Sequence record: NC_079180.1
Direction: 5' to 3' (one strand)
Origin: Escherichia phage SKA49
Length of the DNA: 51,548 bases
In this document: positions 12,899 through 51,383 of the stretch, piece after piece
Layout of the letters: each line of letters opens with the position of its first letter
How positions within the stretch are numbered: position 1 is the stretch's first letter
The notes under the pieces: generated by a model
What the model was told of the DNA's origin: nothing
Databases searched by the model: none
The model's input: the letters and a program-made list of their open reading frames with translations, nothing else
Program-made: the position numbers and the translations under genes

Positions 12899-13795
12899 GT
12901 TGCCGATGGCAAACTTGAGAGACTAAGCTAAATCGATCTGGCATGCACTGGAAGTTTCCGGTGCTGCCTTGAACCCATTCCAGAGTGAGTGGGCTTCAAT
13001 TTGTACATAATTCAAACACCAGTGCATGAGCCTTCGACGGAAGGCAATGTTGGGAAATTTGTTGTGTACAAATTGAAGTAGTTTTCTGAGTCTTACGACG
13101 GGCCTAAACTGCCTGGAGTTATTGCGACTGTTTTATTCATTTAAAATAAATGCAAATGATTCTGAAATGCGAGTTGCGGCTTAATTAAATTTAAGTCCTC
13201 TCCGTGGTCTTCCAATCCCACGTAACCAAATTTGGCGCATTGTGGCTTCGAGATGTGATTAATAAATCGGAGCAATAATTAATTTGTATTCTGCGATGCA
13301 AAGCAGGCTTAAGTCCTCCAGTGCGCGTGGGGATGTGACAGAGTACAAACTTAATTATGCAGTTGGATATTTCTAGAGGACGGACGAGCACACTGGAATG
13401 TCTTCAATTGGTTTAGTGTGAGAAGCTATGCCAATTTGAAACGTAACTCCTTGGGGAAGTGCTCCTCTGGATTTCCCTCCACGCAGGAATCTCAAGCCTG
13501 TGGCAGTGACTTCGAAGCTGCACTGCGTAACCTAATTCACCCTAAAGTGAATTGCCCTGAGCATGGAAATAAACTGCTCAAACCGATGGTATCTACAAAG
13601 GTAGATTAAATCAGGTTGCCTGTTGGTACTTGGGTTCAACACCTGCTTGCACTCGCAAAGTAGTGCCTCGTACCTGAGATGAAGTGAGTCGGGACCATCA
13701 ATCCCACGTTATGTCAAAACACAGTAGGCGACTCACGGATTCTACAAGCCTCGCAGTTCGGGAAAACCTGCGTTATCAAAACCCCCCACCTATTT

Positions 13796-13887
13796 GGACG
13801 AGTAGCTCAGAAGGTTTGCATTGTGCTCAGTCAGGTAGAGCAATCTGTTCGACAGATGTGTCGTTGGTTCGAATCCAACCTCGTCCA
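13796..13887 (+). tRNA. tRNA-like element (possible tRNA gene or pseudogene; isotype undetermined)
   Basis: Perfect 7-bp acceptor stem GGACGAG/CTCGTCC, canonical T-arm GTTGG-TTCGAAT-CCAAC, discriminator A; core about 19 nt longer than standard, with duplicated GCTCAG flanking a 20-nt insert. Confidence 0.4.
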
Positions 13888-13917
13888 CCCATTTTCAACA
13901 ATAAACATGGAGTCCTC

Positions 13918-14436: not shown

Positions 14437-15499
14437 GTGAACAAGATGAGCCTGTTGCATCTATAAATAAGTACAGTGAAACAAATGCTCGCCATCGCAT
14501 TTCATTTGGCAGTCCGGTACGGGACTTTAAACACACGTATATCATAGTCGAGGGAGTGCGCGACTTTAAATAACGAGACTCTAGCTACTTGTAGCATAGT
14601 AGGTGTAATTCCTGGTGCTCTGGGCATAACACATGATAAATTGCTGCCTCCTAGGATTGGAACGTCCCGCTACACATCGTTAGTGTGAGAAGGTTAGTCC
14701 ACCGAGACAAAGGCTTGCGGCTTGACTCCGGCCAAAGAAGAAAACGGCGTGCTTGAGAACGAAGCTCCGATGACTCCGTAAAGTCAACGTAATGAACGCG
14801 AAAAGTTCAGGTGGTCACTTCCTAAAACAGTGTCCGAGAGCATCCTCGCCAAAGTGCTTGAGAACGTTAGCTCTGTCTTGCCAGCATTAATGGCACGTTG
14901 GCCGCGTAAAGGCCACAGCGTCTGACCAACGTATCGGTCACCAAATTCAATGGATTCGTAGAGTTAATTAAACCTGCACGATGGGATAGGGATATAGCAT
15001 CCGAGGCCGACTGTGTAATTGCTGGCTTACTATAAACCAGCCGAATCCGCCAAATCAATGGGCTAGTGCAAATGTCAGTCACTAGAAGATGTGTTGCAAA
15101 ACGTCTTCCATGATGTGCAAAGTGTCAGTCACGTGCCCGCCAATTTCCTCCAACAGTTATGCCTCTGTTCAAAAGGCTCAAGAGAGCGTCTGGCATACCG
15201 TAGCGATACGGCTTAGTTGCGCTGATTGTGTTGTGCAGAAAGAAAGTTCAGGCTTTCGTTTGGGTTACTCCTCATCCCGAAGTTAGCTGGATTCAAAATC
15301 CAGACTATGTTCCTATACACATGAAATATGCAAGTCGAGGGTTCTTAATGTTCAAACATGATGCGAGCATTAAGCGGGTTTATACTTTTCCCCGATGGTC
15401 CCCATAAACAAGGCTGATTCACTTGGGCGGTTCGAATCAAATTTAATAAGTGTTTTGTAATACTCAGGGCACTTACTTAAATTTTAACTGGAGAGAAAC

Positions 15500-15730
15500 A
15501 TGAAAACTGCTGAAATTGCCGAAGAGATTTATAAGGCCGTAATAGCCAACCAAATCACAAGTGAAGTCCTGCACATGGATATTGAAGAAGTTCGCAATGC
15601 CTTTGGTGGTTTTGCAATCTTGTCAATAGAAGCTGCGGAAGCACTGACAAACACGTACAATCAACGCGAATATGAAAAGCGTTCTGTACTAAATGCGTCG
15701 ATGAAAGAAATTCAGGCGTCATTAAAATAA
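15500..15730 (+). CDS. hypothetical protein (76 aa)
   Basis: GGAGAG RBS; track ORF. Confidence 0.55.
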   Translation: MKTAEIAEEIYKAVIANQITSEVLHMDIEEVRNAFGGFAILSIEAAEALTNTYNQREYEKRSVLNASMKEIQASLK

Positions 15731-15786
15731 TACCATTATCATGGTGCGGAGCTAATTAATCTCCCACCATATGAACCGGAGAGCAA

Positions 15787-16437
15787 ATGATTACTGCAAC
15801 ACTCGTTGACCACATGGGCAGCGACCTCACCACTGTTAATGCTGCACGAGTTTCTTATGGTGCAGAGTCGCATGAAATATCTTTACGTGACGAGAAGCTG
15901 ATTGAGTTTCTTGCAAAGCATAAGCACATTACGCCGTTTCGCCACGCACAGGTAACATTGCGTTGCAAAGCTCCAATCTTCATTGCACGTCAGCTTGGCA
16001 AACATCAAACTGGCTTTAGTTGGAATGAGGTTAGCCGTCGTTACAAAGATGGCGAAGCAATCTCTATTGAATGCTTTGTACCAGGTGTTGTATTTGGTCG
16101 TCCTGAAAAGTTGATGACTCAGACTGCACAACCGTTGCCACAAGATTTTGCTGACGATATTCATTATCGCATGGAAAGCCATAACAAGGCTTGCATCGCA
16201 GAGTATGAAACGTTAATTGGTTTGGGGATTGCCCCAGAGCAAGCTCGCATGGTTCTCCCACAATCCATGATGACTGAATGGATTTGGACTGGCTCACTTT
16301 ATGGCTGGGCATCTATGTATAATCAACGTTCCTCCGAACATGCGCAATATGAAGTTCGCTTGTTTGCGGAAGAAGTGAATAAAATCATGTCAGAACTGTT
16401 CCCAATTTGTTGGAAGGCTCTGACCAACCAGGAATAA
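15787..16437 (+). CDS. thyX: ThyX-like flavin-dependent thymidylate synthase (divergent)
   Basis: ARQLGKHQTGFSWNEVSRRY resembles the ThyX RHRx7S signature, with KHQ in place of RHR; N-terminal AARVSYG block. Confidence 0.55.
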   Translation: MITATLVDHMGSDLTTVNAARVSYGAESHEISLRDEKLIEFLAKHKHITPFRHAQVTLRCKAPIFIARQLGKHQTGFSWNEVSRRYKDGEAISIECFVPGVVFGRPEKLMTQTAQPLPQDFADDIHYRMESHNKACIAEYETLIGLGIAPEQARMVLPQSMMTEWIWTGSLYGWASMYNQRSSEHAQYEVRLFAEEVNKIMSELFPICWKALTNQE

Positions 16438-16441
16438 ATAA

Positions 16442-18205
16442 ATGAACGTCAAGCAATGTGTGGCTAAGATTAAGCACGATGTACCAGACTGTAAATCCAC
16501 ATCTGGCAAGTCTTTACAGGTTTGGTTGAATGTCGATGAAGCTGGTAATAAGAACTTCTCTGGTTACTGCTTTGCGTGTGGCGTTCTAGTACCAAATCCT
16601 TATGGCAATAATCCGGAGAACATTCCAGAGATTAAAGTCAAAACTCCAGAAGAAATTCAGGAAGAAGTTGATGAAATCACTGCTTGTCCTCCGTTTGATT
16701 TAACCCATCGCAGCATCGAGCCAGAATTCTGGAAAGCTGCTGGTGTCCGACTTCTGTATTCAGAGTATGATGGAAAGACTCCAAATGCTCTGGCACATGG
16801 CTACACCAAAAATGGTAAACTTGTTCGTTGGAAGATTAAACTTCTGAACAAGAAAGTTATGTGGTCAGTTGGCGACACTCAGGGTAACGACCCTTACAAC
16901 TGGATGGCTGCAAAAGCAATTGGCGGTAAGACACTGTTCATCACAGAAGGTGAAGAAGACTGCATCGCATTGCGTCAAATCCTCAAAACTATGAACCGTG
17001 GTGGTGCATATGAAGATTTGGATTTTGCTGTAATTAGTTTGAGTGACGGAAGTGATTCCGTACACAAATGCTTGTCGCCAGTTGCAGAAGAAATTAAGCA
17101 ACGTTGGGAGCAGGTTGTTATCGTATTTGATGATGATGAACCTGGACGTAAAGCTGCAAAAGAAGCGTGTCGATTGTTGCCTGGTGCAATGATTGCAACA
17201 CTTCCAGCTAACGATGCCAACGATTGTTTGAAGCGTGGCTTGCTCAAAGCTACTCAATCTGCTGTTGTGTTCCGTGCTGCTCGTCCTCTGCCTACAGCAC
17301 TTGTCAACAAAGAACTTCTTATGGAAGAGCTTGATGACGAGGTTGAACAGGGTGTGGACTATCCTTGGCCCAAGCTAACTGACTTAATGTTTGGTCAACG
17401 TCGAGCCGAAGTTATTACAATCGGTGGTGCAGAAGGTGGTGGTAAAACTACCTTGTCCCGTCAGATTGTGCATCACAACATTACCAAGCACGATTGGGGA
17501 GTGTTTACTGCATACATGGAGGAAACTCCTACAGAAACATTGCGCCGAATGGCTGGCCTTAATGACAACTTGCCATATTGGGAACCTGCGTTTACTCGTG
17601 AAGACCCTCGATATGATGAAGCTAAGTTCCGTCAAACTGCTGCGAAGATGCTTCGTAACATGGAGATTTGGGACCGCAAGCAAGCTGGAGAAGACCCTTA
17701 TGAAACCTGGGATGGGTTAAAGACGATTCTTCGTCAGATTGGACCAGACATTGATATGTTTGTCCTTGATAACTTAACCTACTTATCGGAAGGGATTTCT
17801 GCGTCAGAGAAGAACGACTTTCTGGGCAAGCTGTATGCAGACATTACAAAGTTAGCAGACCAGTACCAGTTCCACGTGAATATTCTGTCGCACCTTAACC
17901 CTGTGGCAAAAGGTCAACGACCTCATGAGGATGGTGGACGTATTAAGAAGTCAGACTTTACTGGCTCACGTGCTGCTGCTAAATATTCTCATGGTATGTT
18001 CGGCTTTGAGCGTAATAGCCAGGCAGTTGACCCAAACTGTTCTATTATTCGTTCCATCAAAGCTCGTAAGAGTGGTAAAACAGAAGGCTTCAAGACGTAT
18101 TATGACACCGAATCTGGTCGAATTATTCAACGTTCTTGGGATGACTCTCTGTTCGAAACTAAAGAGATTGTTCAACTTACTAAGAAGAACGGTCCACACC
18201 AATAA
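16442..18205 (+). CDS. DNA primase/helicase (zinc-finger, TOPRIM and DnaB-like helicase domains)
   Basis: Zn-binding SGYCFACGV; TOPRIM LFITEGEEDCIAL and VFDDDEPGRKAA; Walker A GGAEGGGKTT; Walker B-like MFVLDNLT. Confidence 0.85.
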   Translation: MNVKQCVAKIKHDVPDCKSTSGKSLQVWLNVDEAGNKNFSGYCFACGVLVPNPYGNNPENIPEIKVKTPEEIQEEVDEITACPPFDLTHRSIEPEFWKAAGVRLLYSEYDGKTPNALAHGYTKNGKLVRWKIKLLNKKVMWSVGDTQGNDPYNWMAAKAIGGKTLFITEGEEDCIALRQILKTMNRGGAYEDLDFAVISLSDGSDSVHKCLSPVAEEIKQRWEQVVIVFDDDEPGRKAAKEACRLLPGAMIATLPANDANDCLKRGLLKATQSAVVFRAARPLPTALVNKELLMEELDDEVEQGVDYPWPKLTDLMFGQRRAEVITIGGAEGGGKTTLSRQIVHHNITKHDWGVFTAYMEETPTETLRRMAGLNDNLPYWEPAFTREDPRYDEAKFRQTAAKMLRNMEIWDRKQAGEDPYETWDGLKTILRQIGPDIDMFVLDNLTYLSEGISASEKNDFLGKLYADITKLADQYQFHVNILSHLNPVAKGQRPHEDGGRIKKSDFTGSRAAAKYSHGMFGFERNSQAVDPNCSIIRSIKARKSGKTEGFKTYYDTESGRIIQRSWDDSLFETKEIVQLTKKNGPHQ

Positions 18206-23361: not shown

Positions 23362-24106
23362 GCTCCTCGATGACGGTACAAGATACACAAAGGCTCACGC
23401 ACATGATTGGGAAGACCCAGACTGCCGTATCAAAGGGCGCTGTGAACTCTTCATCAAGATTGACGGAATTCGAGCTATCCGTAATAAATCAGGTAGTGTC
23501 TGGAGTCGTAATTCCAAACCCCTACCTCATTTGGACCACTTACAGTTCAGAGATGCTGAGATATTCCGTAATAGTTGGAATGAGACTTCTAGCATCCTCG
23601 GACGTATTGACCCGCCAAGCATCCCACTAACCCAGGACAATGTGTATGAGTTGAGTGATGGTGCTGTTGACCCACGCCTGTACATCGGCTGGTGCAAAGA
23701 CCCAAGCAATGAAAACCTTAAGGCATTGATGGATAAATATCTGGCGCTTGGTCATGAAGGTATCATTGTCCGTGATGCAAGAGGTAAATGGTGGAAGATT
23801 GTACCATATAAATACGCCGATGTGAAGATTACTGGTATGAAAGAAGGTACTGGTGCTCTTAAAGGTATGTGTGGTTCTATCTCCTCGAACTACGGCAGTG
23901 CTGGTTCAATGGTGAAAGATTGTCTGGCAGACCACGGCATTCCAGAATCTAACACATTGATTCGTAAGTGGTTGTGGGAACATCGCCACGAACTAATTGG
24001 TTCGATTATGCAAGTTCGATATCGTGAGAAGACAGAAGCTGGTAAGTTCCGGTTCCCGTCACTCGTCCGTTTACGTGCAGACAAAAGTGAGGAAAGTTTT
24101 GATTAA
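23351..24106 (+). CDS. ATP-dependent DNA ligase (compact)
   Basis: Motif I FIKIDGIRA (KxDG); LGHEGIIVRDARGKWWKIVPYKYADVKI resembles motifs IV-V. Confidence 0.75.
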   Translation: MSIKLLDDGTRYTKAHAHDWEDPDCRIKGRCELFIKIDGIRAIRNKSGSVWSRNSKPLPHLDHLQFRDAEIFRNSWNETSSILGRIDPPSIPLTQDNVYELSDGAVDPRLYIGWCKDPSNENLKALMDKYLALGHEGIIVRDARGKWWKIVPYKYADVKITGMKEGTGALKGMCGSISSNYGSAGSMVKDCLADHGIPESNTLIRKWLWEHRHELIGSIMQVRYREKTEAGKFRFPSLVRLRADKSEESFD

Positions 24107-24725
24107 ACGATTAGCTGTTATTCTCAATGGACCTCCTGGCTGCGGCAAAGACACCATTGCAAATAAGATTGTTGCTGCTGAGGAACCTTACTTCCTCGGC
24201 AAACGCAAATTCATTAAACACCAGTTTAAGGATGCACTGTATGAGCATACTGCCAAACACTTTCAAGTTGATGTGGACAAGTTTATCCACTACGCTTCGG
24301 ACCGTGACCTCAAAGACTCTATCTCCCTTGCAGGTCTTGGTGGCAGAACACCTCGTCAGGCTCTTATTCACGTTAGCGAAGACGTGTATAAACCTCGCCA
24401 CGGACAAGACTACTTCGGTAAGGTTGAGGCTGCTCGTGTTGAAGAACTCGCGGGGCGTATGGGTGGCATTATTAATGTCATTTATCCCGATGGCGGTTTT
24501 GGTGATGAAGTCGTTGCCATTGAGTCTGCTTATGATTTTGTCCTCATTGTGCGTTTGCATCGTGATGGTTTTGATTTCACGGGCGATTCTCGCAGATACA
24601 TCAACCTCCCAGACACACCTACCCGCGTAACAGTGGATGAACATCTAGTTGATGGTAAAGTGGGTGATTCTGTATTCAAAGTGTTCAACTGGATTGAACG
24701 CGTAACTTATCAAGTAGAGAAATAA
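24099..24725 (+). CDS. deoxynucleoside monophosphate kinase-like P-loop protein (start uncertain: TTG 24099 or GTG 24087)
   Basis: P-loop LNGPPGCGKDT resembling T4 gp1 GxxRSGKDT; GAGGA before TTG; in frame with track ORF 23997..24725. Confidence 0.55.
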   Translation: MIKRLAVILNGPPGCGKDTIANKIVAAEEPYFLGKRKFIKHQFKDALYEHTAKHFQVDVDKFIHYASDRDLKDSISLAGLGGRTPRQALIHVSEDVYKPRHGQDYFGKVEAARVEELAGRMGGIINVIYPDGGFGDEVVAIESAYDFVLIVRLHRDGFDFTGDSRRYINLPDTPTRVTVDEHLVDGKVGDSVFKVFNWIERVTYQVEK

Positions 24726-24727
24726 TC

Positions 24728-25327
24728 ATGTCTTGTATGACCCAAGTTGTTGCAGTTAAACGAGTGCATCCTAATGCGAAATTACCTGTGTACGCTACTG
24801 CTGGCGCTGCTGCTGCTGACGTTTGCACTATCTCCGATAGCACTGTTGTTATCAATCCCGGCTGCTCTGCTGTTTTCGATACAGGCCTCCAATTCGAGAT
24901 TCCAGTTGGATACGAACTCAAAGTACATAGCCGTTCTGGTCATGGCTTTAAGTCTGGTATTCGCTTGGCAAACTGCACAGGAATTCTGGACTCCGATTAT
25001 CGTGGTAATCTTATGGTTAAGCTGCACAATGACTCGGACACAGCCTTTGTGGTTCAACCAGGTGAACGTATTTGTCAGGTGCAAGTTAGTAAAGCTACTC
25101 AACACCATTTCGTTGAAGTTGACAGCTTGAATGAAACTGCTCGTGGTGTAGGTGGCTTTGGTTCTACTGGACGTGTAGAAGTTGGTCAGTACGACCCAAG
25201 TCTTATCGTTCCATCAAACGGCTCACACTCGCACAGCATGTCTGTTGTTGGCGAAGGCACAACGGCCTTTGTTTCAGGAACAACTTCAATTGGTACCCAC
25301 ACTCGCGGGGCCGAACGTTACAAATAA
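24728..25327 (+). CDS. dut: dUTP pyrophosphatase
   Basis: dUTPase motifs RSGHG, GILDSDYRG, GERICQ, RGVGGFGSTG. Confidence 0.9.
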   Translation: MSCMTQVVAVKRVHPNAKLPVYATAGAAAADVCTISDSTVVINPGCSAVFDTGLQFEIPVGYELKVHSRSGHGFKSGIRLANCTGILDSDYRGNLMVKLHNDSDTAFVVQPGERICQVQVSKATQHHFVEVDSLNETARGVGGFGSTGRVEVGQYDPSLIVPSNGSHSHSMSVVGEGTTAFVSGTTSIGTHTRGAERYK

Positions 25328-49728: not shown

Positions 49729-50283
49729 ATGCTATCATTCAAAGTCCTTGCACTTCTGGCAGCTTTAGTTCACATCAACGCCCCAGCTTCGGTTGGGGCA
49801 GTGAATTCTGCTATTACAGATTTTGCAAGTCATTCTTATTTAAATGGAAGTCTGAAACTATCTTCTTCACAACGCAAAGAGCTAGAATGCTACACTAAAG
49901 TTATCTGGTATGAAGCTCGCGGAGAAGACAAACATGGAAAGATTCTGGTAGCTAATGTCGTCCGTAATAGAACTGAGTTCGGGAAGCCATTCGCTAACAC
50001 CGTTTGTGATGTTGTCTATCAACGCAATCAATTTGCATGGACACGAGAAGCAAAGAAGAAGAATGCTCAATGGAAGCATGTAGCAAAGATTAATTATGCC
50101 ACAGAACAACAACAAGTTCTGGACACCATTAGTGTTGCAATCTCTTTTGTACTATTTAATCAACCCTCTGTCACCAAAGCAACCCACTTTTGTACAGCAT
50201 CTGAGAAGTGCAACTTCAAGAATGTTAAAGGTCTGGGACGTTATGGTGGCCATAAATTCTATGAGTATCTAGGAAATCTGTAA
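49729..50283 (+). CDS. SleB/CwlJ-like cell wall hydrolase with N-terminal signal sequence (endolysin candidate)
   Basis: [25 protein letters not shown]...[15 protein letters not shown]; N-terminus [24 protein letters not shown]; AAGGA RBS. Confidence 0.7.
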
Positions 50284-51383
50284 TGGCTTACACTACCTTT
50301 TCACAAACCAAGAATAACCAACTACTAGAGCCAATGTTCTTTGGTCAGAACGTTAACGTTGCTCGATATGACCAACAGAAGTACAGCATCTTCGAGAAGT
50401 TAATCGAGAAGCAGTTGTCTTTCTTTTGGCGACCTGAGGAGGTTGATGTTAGCCAGGACCGAATTGACTATGCTGGTCTTCCTGAGTGTGAGAAACACAT
50501 TTTCACCAGCAATTTACGATACCAAATCTTGCTTGATTCCATTCAGGGACGTGGGCCAACTACAGTTTTGCTACCAATTGTGAGCATTCCTGAGCTTGAA
50601 ACTTGGATTGAAACTTGGTCATTCTCAGAGACAATTCACTCTCGTTCTTACACGCATATTATTCGCAATATTGTCACCGACCCAAGCGTCATCTTTGATG
50701 AAATTGTGGAGAATGAGCATATTAAAATGCGTGCAATTGGCATCTCCCAATATTATGACGAGCTTCAACACCTGACTTCCATGTGGCATCTGCATGAAGA
50801 TAAAGTTTCTCTTCGTGAGCTTAAGAAGAAGCTGTATTTATGCCTAATGTCCATCAATGCACTGGAAGCAATTCGCTTTTATGTCAGTTTTGCTTGCTCA
50901 TTTGCCTTCGCTGAACGCAAGTTAATGGAAGGAAATGCCAAGATTATTCGCTTAATTGCTCGTGATGAAGCGCTCCATTTGACCGGAACTCAACACATGC
51001 TGAACCTTCTTGCAAGCGGTGCTGATGACCCAGAAATGGCCGAAATTGCTAAAGAATGCCGCCAAGAATGCCAAGAAATGTTCGAAAATGTGGCCCAACA
51101 AGAGAAAGATTGGGCTGATTATTTGTTCAAAGATGGCTCAATGATTGGCTTAAACAGGCAAATTCTGTGCGGATATGTGGAATATATTACAAATATTCGT
51201 ATGCAAGCAGTTGGATTGGATGCTCCATTCAAAGGTGCTACTAACCCGATTCCTTGGATTAACGCATGGTTGAATTCGGATGCTGTACAAGTTGCTCCAC
51301 AAGAAACGGAGATTAGTTCGTACCTTGTTGGGCAGATTGACTCCGAAGTTGACACCAATGCTCTAGGCGGATTTGAACTATGA
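50283..51383 (+). CDS. nrdB: class Ia ribonucleotide reductase beta subunit
   Basis: Near-colinear with enterobacterial NrdB as I recall it: [54 protein letters not shown]-terminal [13 protein letters not shown]; one short internal deletion. Confidence 0.85.

Follow-up and report, generated by a model that had tools for sequence, protein, structure and literature searches.

Escherichia phage SKA49 encodes, at 15787..16437 on the plus strand of the 51,548-nucleotide stretch analysed here (NC_079180.1; hereafter the window), a protein that resembles the flavin-dependent thymidylate synthases (ThyX) but carries K-H-Q opposite the R-H-R of their signature. The question raised by this locus is whether such a protein is a divergent but active ThyX or a repurposed fold, the two readings offered by the first-pass annotation. 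The ThyX signature is also written with an 'x7-8' spacer. In its literal form, RHRx7S, it goes back to Myllykallio 2002, as quoted in PMC2826268.

Coding sequence, family assignment and fold

The thyX coding sequence runs from an ATG to a stop codon lying within the above coordinates, specifies 216 amino acids, and is assigned on the basis of profiles, AlphaFold and Foldseek to the KH/SRRY subfamily of flavin-dependent thymidylate synthases. A Shine-Dalgarno-like GGAG (15778..15781, plus strand), read from the sequence, is located 5 nt 5' of the ATG, and GGAGAGcaaATG is given for ORF38 of phage ST32 as it is for the thyX ribosome-binding region here (PMC6266442). Promoter/terminator, Rfam and repeat scans of the ORF-poor stretch on the 5' side (about 14.6–15.5 kb) returned nothing significant.

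The search against PF02511 (Thy1) proposed by the first-pass annotation produced a match of 147 bits (E=7e-43; cut-off 24.8 bits) covering profile positions 1–190 of 191, while the NCBIfam thyX equivalog TIGR02170 was matched with 132.4 bits against a cut-off of 87.9, and PHROG 85 with E=3e-71. PF02511 was the sole family recovered in a Pfam search at E <= 1, in which the ThyA-type Thymidylat_synt profile was not matched. The nearest solved chains found by phmmer (E ~1e-28, 103–104 bits, 34–35% identity) are the ThyX of T. thermophilus (Tt; PDB 6j61) and T. maritima (Tm; TM0449; PDB 1kq4, 1o26, 4gt9, 8reo), which, like the SKA49 protein, belong to the class of about 220 amino acids without extra domains. 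The AlphaFold2 monomer model, computed from an input alignment of 53 sequences, has a pLDDT of 94.1 and a pTM of 0.88, and the best 50 Foldseek matches in the PDB are all T. maritima ThyX (TM 0.77–0.83, E ~1e-17), the fold being common to both proteins at a TM of 0.83. Profile, fold and catalytic residues all place the SKA49 protein in the ThyX family, and its motif is a subfamily variant.

Position and variation of the KHQ motif

The peptide on which the first-pass annotation was based, ARQLGKHQTGFSWNEVSRRY, is present as residues 67–86 of SKA49 ThyX. In phmmer alignments to the solved ThyX chains and a MAFFT alignment of 153 sequences, the extended motif R-Q-L-G-K-H-Q-x8-S-R-R-Y (amino acids 68–86; 15988..16044, plus strand) corresponds to R74...Y91 of the T. 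maritima enzyme, where the codons of K72-H73-Q74 (aaa cat caa; 16000..16008, plus strand) stand opposite Tm R78-H79-R80 and the RHR of T. thermophilus, S83 opposite Tm S88, and R85-Y86 opposite Tm R90-Y91. The literal signature R-H-R-x7(-8)-S is absent from SKA49 ThyX, which reads K-H-Q-x8-S, with the histidine and the serine kept and both arginines replaced. The alignment with RHRx7S first proposed was right in placing KHQ opposite RHR, but not in its spacer, which has eight residues (TGFSWNEV) instead of seven, a one-residue insertion relative to the Tm and Tt enzymes. The glycine preceding the inserted residue is common to 135 of 150 related cluster representatives.

Among 120 close homologs (66–97% identity; from Escherichia, Yersinia, Erwinia, Pantoea and Pectobacterium phages and from metagenomes), K-H is kept in all 120, followed by Q in 118, by S in one and by A in one. 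When 1.84 billion cluster representatives were searched exhaustively, 7,645 ThyX-like clusters (50%-identity clusters) were recovered, the nearest 150 of which, 40–59% identical to SKA49 ThyX, served as the comparison set. In this set the position of Tm R78 is occupied by K in 130 clusters and by R in 19, that of Tm H79 by H in 137, and that of Tm R80 by Q (80), K (21), T (20), V (7), R (6) or M (3). Members of the set share the one-residue insertion and have S-R-R-Y instead of S-G-R-Y, and intermediates with RHT, RHQ and, in a few cases, RHR...SRRY occur, so that the change looks gradual within one subfamily. As judged from these alignments, KHQ is no peculiarity of SKA49 but the norm in a large ThyX subfamily carried mostly by phages, whose signature would read [K/R]-H-[Q/K/T/V]-x8-S-R-R-Y, as against R-H-R-x7-S-G-R-Y. 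The rarity of KHQ implied by the first-pass annotation is therefore wrong, and KHQ as a lineage-specific oddity was rejected, as it is fixed in the close homologs and dominant in the nearest clusters. A strict covariation between the loss of R80 and the gain of R89 was also considered and is unsupported, as SRRY is already present in the few subfamily members that have RHR or KHR.

Distribution in phages and bacterial chromosomes

The 5-kb stretch around thyX is 92–98% identical to the Escherichia phages PO103-1, Bp7, flopper, ST32 and phiEcoM-GJ1 (Chaseviridae, Carltongylesvirus). SKA49 ThyX itself is 100% identical to a protein of an IMG/VR contig (L062, 53,092 bp), 99.5% to that of Bp7 and 90% to that of phiEcoM-GJ1. 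The ThyX of ST32 (ORF38), vB_EcoP_Bp7 and phiEcoM-GJ1 (gp33, YP_001595428) is the same gene in the same place upstream of the primase-helicase gene, although phiEcoM-GJ1 and some relatives have an HNH endonuclease gene between the two, which SKA49 lacks. The gene is annotated as '(putative) thymidylate synthase' in ST32, phiEcoM-GJ1, Bp7 and dozens of relatives, and the finding is in this respect already known.

Beyond this clade, KH/SRRY enzymes are found in phiEco32-like coliphages (such as Paul and IME267; 52–56% identity), Siovirus SIO1 and Lentibacter phage ICBM1, and among bacteria in Spirochaetia (OZ251568.1, for example), Nitrospinaceae, Poribacteria, Chloroflexota and Dependentiae MAGs. 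They have K-H-Q/K/T...x8...S-R-R-Y in common with SKA49 ThyX at 40–56% identity, and would have the same function. A pattern scan of GTDB species genomes recovered 60 KHQ-type thyX loci; the patterns were KHQ-containing peptides taken from 10 sequences, and the matches are KH-type by construction and uninformative on frequency. In a Spirochaetia chromosome (1.79 Mb), thyX lies beside pyrD (dihydroorotate dehydrogenase), pyrF/pyrE-like (OMP decarboxylase/phosphoribosyltransferase), pyrB (aspartate carbamoyltransferase), a gene for a dihydroorotase-like amidohydrolase (pyrC) and the citrate synthase gene; its neighbours in a Nitrospinaceae MAG are ispH, mlaA and acrB. Gene order on either side of thyX is kept from one species to another within at least five lineages (Nitrospinota, Spirochaetes, Poribacteria, Chloroflexota and Dependentiae), which argues for stable housekeeping genes and not prophage cargo. 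Because K stands first in 130 of the 150 nearest clusters and R third in only 6, and because the variant occupies conserved chromosomal housekeeping loci, the literal RHR motif is an invalid criterion for this branch.

Catalytic and dUMP-binding residues

The predicted dUMP-binding and catalytic residues of SKA49 ThyX are Q69, E81, S83, R85, Y86, R154 and R181, together with the stacking histidine H47 (Tm Q75, E86, S88, R90, Y91, R147, R174 and H53, respectively). In the phmmer and MAFFT alignments, the residues retained from the T. maritima enzyme comprise S30, H53, T55, R74, Q75, H79, N85, E86, S88, R90, Y91, E144, R147, R174, H178 and Q180, among which those that bind or activate dUMP or stack on the folate (H53, Q75, E86, S88, R90, Y91, E144, R147 and R174) are identical between SKA49 ThyX and the Tm and Tt enzymes. 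Conservation of the retained residues in the nearest cluster representatives is high (R174 in 150/150, R147 in 149/150, H53 and S88 in 148/150, R90 in 147/150). In the characterised enzymes, R174 activates dUMP, with S88, R90 and Y91 assisting methylene transfer (PMC8316439), H53, held by Y91 and N85, stacks on the flavin or folate (PMC11940539), and the Mtb equivalents of R74, R78, S88, R90, R147 and R174 are dUMP binders (PMC6514825, PMC9571937). The differences from the Tm and Tt enzymes include the change of RHR to KHQ, the x8 spacer, SRRY for SGRY, and Y for Tm R165.

The guanidinium group of R78 faces N1/C2=O of the flavin, where it stabilises FADH-, and a basic residue at this place is generic in flavoproteins (PMC11940539), from which we infer that Lys is a plausible substitute. 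Two statements in the literature count against the activity of KH-type enzymes: Arg78 and Arg80 have been called conserved dUMP-contacting residues (PMC3498832), and PMC2386288 cites site-directed experiments on the M. tuberculosis enzyme as evidence that activity depends on the ThyX motif.

All solved ThyX structures with a readable motif (Tm and Tt) are RHR. The ThyX of a Borrelia plasmid, which has reportedly been shown to complement thyA, was considered as a characterised KH-type enzyme and rejected, its sequence being RHR-type. The M. tuberculosis and H. pylori structures are RHR as well (PMC6514825). A search of the literature and the PDB found no KH-type ThyX characterised by biochemistry or structure, although Liu & Yang 2004, on 'distinctive ThyX motifs', may already describe the variant.

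Selection on thyX and its proposed function

Among the Chaseviridae orthologs of thyX, the median dN/dS is 0.143 (range 0.066–0.211; 26 pairs with 0.05<dS<2), where one ortholog (L070) was left out of the analysis, its codon mapping being off by one codon. The codons of K72, H73 and Q74 vary only synonymously among the orthologs (AAA/AAG, CAT/CAC and CAA/CAG, respectively), and a complete, uninterrupted reading frame is present in more than 70 genomes of phages as well as in 120 protein clusters. Purifying selection on thyX is strong, and KHQ is under selection and not decaying. Chance, artefact or pseudogene were rejected as explanations of the locus on the profile scores, the intact open reading frame and the dN/dS of about 0.14.

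The product of the SKA49 gene is very probably a working flavin-dependent thymidylate synthase of the KH/SRRY subfamily, in which the canonical mechanism would operate with K72 in place of R78. The first of the two readings with which the analysis began, a divergent but active ThyX, is thus favoured by the dUMP-binding and catalytic residues, the low dN/dS, the fold and the bacterial housekeeping loci. The enzyme would act as a flavin-binding homotetramer in which three subunits contribute to each active site, where NADPH would reduce the flavin and the carbon of methylene-tetrahydrofolate would pass to flavin N5. R181, the equivalent of Tm R174, is predicted to activate dUMP, which R85, R154, S83, Q69 and E81 would hold in place; dUMP would then attack the flavin-bound carbon, and reduction of the exocyclic methylene would yield dTMP and tetrahydrofolate, with no need for DHFR. 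K72 may take over the task of Tm R78 as a cation facing flavin N1/C2=O and as a hydrogen-bond donor to the 3'-OH of dUMP, while the loss of the R80 side chain would be tolerated in the KH/SRRY subfamily.

The flavin-phosphate site of the Chaseviridae clade

According to PMC6514825, the FAD phosphates and the ribityl chain are hydrogen-bonded by RHR and by two further residues, S71 and R190 in Mtb (S50 and R165 in Hp). The arginine equivalent to Mtb R190/Hp R165 is Tm R165, which corresponds to Y172 of SKA49 ThyX as mapped by spacing, nine residues before the catalytic arginine, and not by structure superposition. Arg is found at the Tm R165 position in only one of the 150 representatives, while four residues on, in the same helix, the Tm N169 position is Arg in 102 of 150, which suggests a relocated phosphate ligand. 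In the Chaseviridae clade the latter position is S or N (S176 in SKA49 ThyX). Most other KH/SRRY enzymes contain W-R-x-R-P-x3-K-Q-G-S and Arg at the Tm N169 position, but the Chaseviridae clade has neither: the K-Q-G-S loop motif, found in 137 of the 150 representatives and as KQAS in Thermus, whose enzyme thus has the K-Q-(G/A)-S loop that SKA49 ThyX lacks, is absent from the clade. A three-residue insertion, I92-S93-I94, is private to the clade. Among the ligands of the FAD phosphates and ribityl chain, K72 (a conservative replacement), H73 and T49 (Tm T55) are kept, while Q74 and Y172 replace two arginines.

On aligned positions, none of the three flavin-phosphate sites compared (Tm 80, 165 and 169) is Arg in the Chaseviridae clade, and its flavin binding may differ. 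The flavin-phosphate site of the clade is thus unusually poor in arginine, and the losses at the Tm 165 and 169 positions and of the K-Q-G-S loop count against the favoured reading of a functional ThyX. As the arginines are lost at these three positions together with the K-Q-G-S loop, a different usage of flavin or reductant is possible, and the clade might represent thymidylate synthases with a loose or FMN-type flavin or a free flavin reduced by the host, and, more widely, the KH/SRRY subfamily would indicate that the 'strictly conserved' RHR is dispensable for ThyX chemistry; we regard this as unlikely.

Alternative explanations

The arginine losses just described also bear on the specific alternative that ThyX of SKA49 produces dTMP as usual but departs from the canonical enzymes in its handling of the flavin, binding FAD weakly, using FMN, or taking up free reduced flavin as a dissociable co-substrate. 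For this speak the replacement, by Q74 and Y172, of two residues described as hydrogen-bonding the FAD phosphates (Tm R80 and the equivalent of Mtb R190/Hp R165; PMC6514825), the S or N of the clade where 102 of 150 representatives have Arg, and the reduction of the listed phosphate and ribityl ligands to K72, H73 and T49. However, the ThyX of T. thermophilus, an RHR enzyme, has His at the 165 position, so that Arg there is dispensable; the subfamily gains an arginine at the Tm G89 position (the second residue of SRRY, R84 here), and K72 retains the positive charge. Given that the Thermus enzyme lacks R165, altered flavin handling is kept as a rival of low probability, and we consider it quite unlikely.

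A fold repurposed as a UMP or dCMP methylase, or as a 5-hydroxymethyl-dUMP synthase for DNA modification, is a very improbable explanation, and no support for the second reading of the first-pass annotation was found. ThyX folds of other specificity do exist, and SKA49 ThyX shares its fold, and would share flavin-dependent C5 methylation, with PDB 4p5a/4p5b, which we take to be a PolB-type UMP/dUMP C5-methylase (entered in the PDB table as 'Thymidylate synthase ThyX'). That protein is much more distant (4p5a matched at E=1e-18), with 70 bits as against 103–104 for the Tm and Tt enzymes, the closest solved proteins, which are bona fide thymidylate synthases, and no PolB-like specialisation was seen in SKA49 ThyX. 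Base modification in phages often relies on recruited thymidylate-synthase-like enzymes, the described cases being ThyA-type (PMC8989533). On the other hand, the residues contacting uracil and deoxyribose-phosphate are all kept (Tm R90, R174, R147, S88, Q75 and E86), no hypermodification genes of the kinase or transferase type were seen in the window, the unassigned open reading frames checked matching only PHROGs of unknown function, the same subfamily adjoins pyrimidine biosynthesis genes in a bacterial chromosome, and the dUTPase and dNMP kinase of the phage suit a plain dTTP pathway. An inactive relic that lost RHR and is drifting would account for the replacement of two of the three textbook signature residues, but it is hardly conceivable in view of a dN/dS of about 0.14 with only synonymous variation in the K, H and Q codons, the many genomes and clusters with an intact frame, the invariant catalytic residues, and the occurrence of the variant among the chromosomal housekeeping genes of several lineages of bacteria.

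Genomic neighbourhood and nucleotide pathway

The gene for the primase-helicase (16442..18205, plus strand; compare the annotation of phiEcoM-GJ1 gp35) starts 4 nt after the thyX stop codon, and the two genes are probably co-transcribed. As the DNA polymerase gene follows next, thyX belongs to the replication block. The window further contains genes for a dNMP kinase (24099..24725, plus strand; PHROG 139, E=1e-38), whose start was set by length homology to phiEcoM-GJ1 gp43 and which had no Pfam match above threshold, a dUTPase (24728..25327, plus strand; Pfam PF00692, E=9e-23; PHROG 135, E=2e-61), and NrdB, the small subunit of ribonucleotide reductase (50283..51383, plus strand; Pfam PF00268, E=5e-49; PHROG 86, E=2e-151). 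No NrdA was found in the window, and neither ThyA nor DHFR is annotated in the relatives of SKA49. The nucleotide-supply module proposed in the first-pass annotation is thus borne out as to its members, but the genes are dispersed, with those of the dNMP kinase and dUTPase 8 kb and that of NrdB 34 kb downstream of thyX, which itself stands among the replication genes. In the proposed pathway, dUTP would be converted to dUMP by the dUTPase, dUMP to dTMP by ThyX, with release of THF rather than DHF, and dTMP to dTDP by the dNMP kinase, and the phage ThyX, dUTPase, dNMP kinase and NrdB together would boost the supply of dTTP without depending on the ThyA and FolA of the host.

Implications for the ThyX family

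Set against its relatives, the apparent anomaly vanishes, and the thyX of SKA49 is an ordinary, already annotated auxiliary gene of nucleotide metabolism. RHR still serves as a filter in surveys of ThyX: that in PMC2826268, for one, removed sequences departing by more than two dissimilar residues from the known motif of their family, which for ThyX was RHRX7S; a strict RHR filter risks under-counting a large, mostly viral ThyX subfamily. The substitution of Lys for the Arg that faces flavin N1, combined with the lost arginines of the FAD-phosphate site, would be a natural experiment on the role of the motif, and, as ThyX is an antibacterial target, knowing which active-site residues are truly invariant would be useful.

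Divergence of the SKA49 ThyX within the KH/SRRY subfamily

The flavin-dependent thymidylate synthase of SKA49 (ThyX, 216 aa; window 15787–16437, + strand) differs at four places from the KH/SRRY subfamily, whose members carry a K-H-Q-like triplet in place of RHR and S-R-R-Y in place of S-G-R-Y. In the alignment, an I-S-I insertion (residues 92–94; window 16060–16068) is private to the Chaseviridae clade, while MTQT (residues 110–113; window 16114–16125) occupies the place of the loop motif K-Q-G-S, which is present in 137 of 150 representatives of the nearest 50%-identity ThyX clusters and lost in the clade. Arginine is missing both at the position of R165 in the Thermotoga maritima enzyme, where Y172 is found (window 16300–16302), and at the position one helical turn later where the subfamily has its arginine, here S176 (window 16312–16314). 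As judged from the aligned sequences, these four features are clade-specific departures from the subfamily.

Two plasmid-borne enzymes depart from the motifs in other ways. The ThyX of Staphylococcus aureus plasmid pNTUH_1027 (locus L143; NZ_LC377537.1, 142–849) is a further motif variant in a resistance context: K-Y-V replaces RHR, and the spacer leading to N-E-S-S-R-R-Y is extended by about 12 residues. The trimethoprim-resistance gene dfrE directly adjoins thyX on this plasmid. The ThyX of Borreliella burgdorferi lp54 (locus L142; NZ_CP019925.1, 133–930) has a canonical RHR but contains S-G-C-Y instead of the S-x-R-Y of other ThyX, and therefore a cysteine at the position of the dUMP-binding R90 of T. 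maritima, whereas the B. miyamotoi enzyme retains SGRY.

Possible inteins, transfer and misbinning among KH-type ThyX

Several KH-type cluster representatives (P0121, P0194, P0200, P0206, P0262 and others) are 350–600 aa long and match ThyX in two stretches, a pattern that intein insertions in the subfamily could explain. KH-type ThyX of almost identical sequence occurs on a small, 4.7-kb contig of the Prochlorococcus single-cell genome AG-402-I21 (locus L028) and, in a chromosome context, in a Nitrospinaceae metagenome-assembled genome (locus L058), which points to recent transfer, to a contig of phage origin or to contamination of the bin. Many of the 60 KH-type loci from the GTDB species-genome scan look like phage contigs binned into metagenome-assembled genomes.

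Other nucleotide-metabolism genes

The final gene of the window (50283–51383, + strand) encodes the small subunit of class I ribonucleotide reductase (NrdB); a large subunit was not detected anywhere in the window, and the partner of NrdB is presumably the host NrdA. The 199-aa dUTPase (window 24728–25327, + strand) contains a Pfam dUTPase domain spanning only residues 16–148 and has a second, weaker match that is dCTP-deaminase-like, while its C-terminal 50 or so residues lie outside the domain and carry no assignment.

Surroundings of thyX

A 97-nt tRNA gene (window 13795–13891, + strand) is tentatively assigned to tRNA-Leu (CAG) by ARAGORN and matches the Rfam tRNA model at 45 bits. Its counterpart in phiEcoM-GJ1 is instead annotated as tRNA-Arg that 'may contain an intron'; the gene may contain an intron or, alternatively, have a long variable arm.

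About 900 nt (window ~14630–15500) on the 5' side of the gp32-thyX-primase block contain no plausible ORF and no Rfam match, only short, two-copy repeats and, in a sequence scan, a single terminator-like hairpin (15447–15475). A comparable gap of about 1 kb is seen in the annotations of phiEcoM-GJ1 (14961–16028) and ST32, and the stretch could include an origin, carry phage promoters or encode an RNA that has escaped annotation.

Downstream, only 4 nt separate the thyX stop (16437) from the primase-helicase start (16442). In phiEcoM-GJ1 the HNH endonuclease gene gp34 lies exactly between these two genes, whereas the window has no such gene there; HNH endonuclease genes are likewise annotated in SA91KD, DE15 and 2KOFFS, inside the matched region. 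The thyX/primase-helicase junction is a site of homing-endonuclease presence/absence polymorphism.
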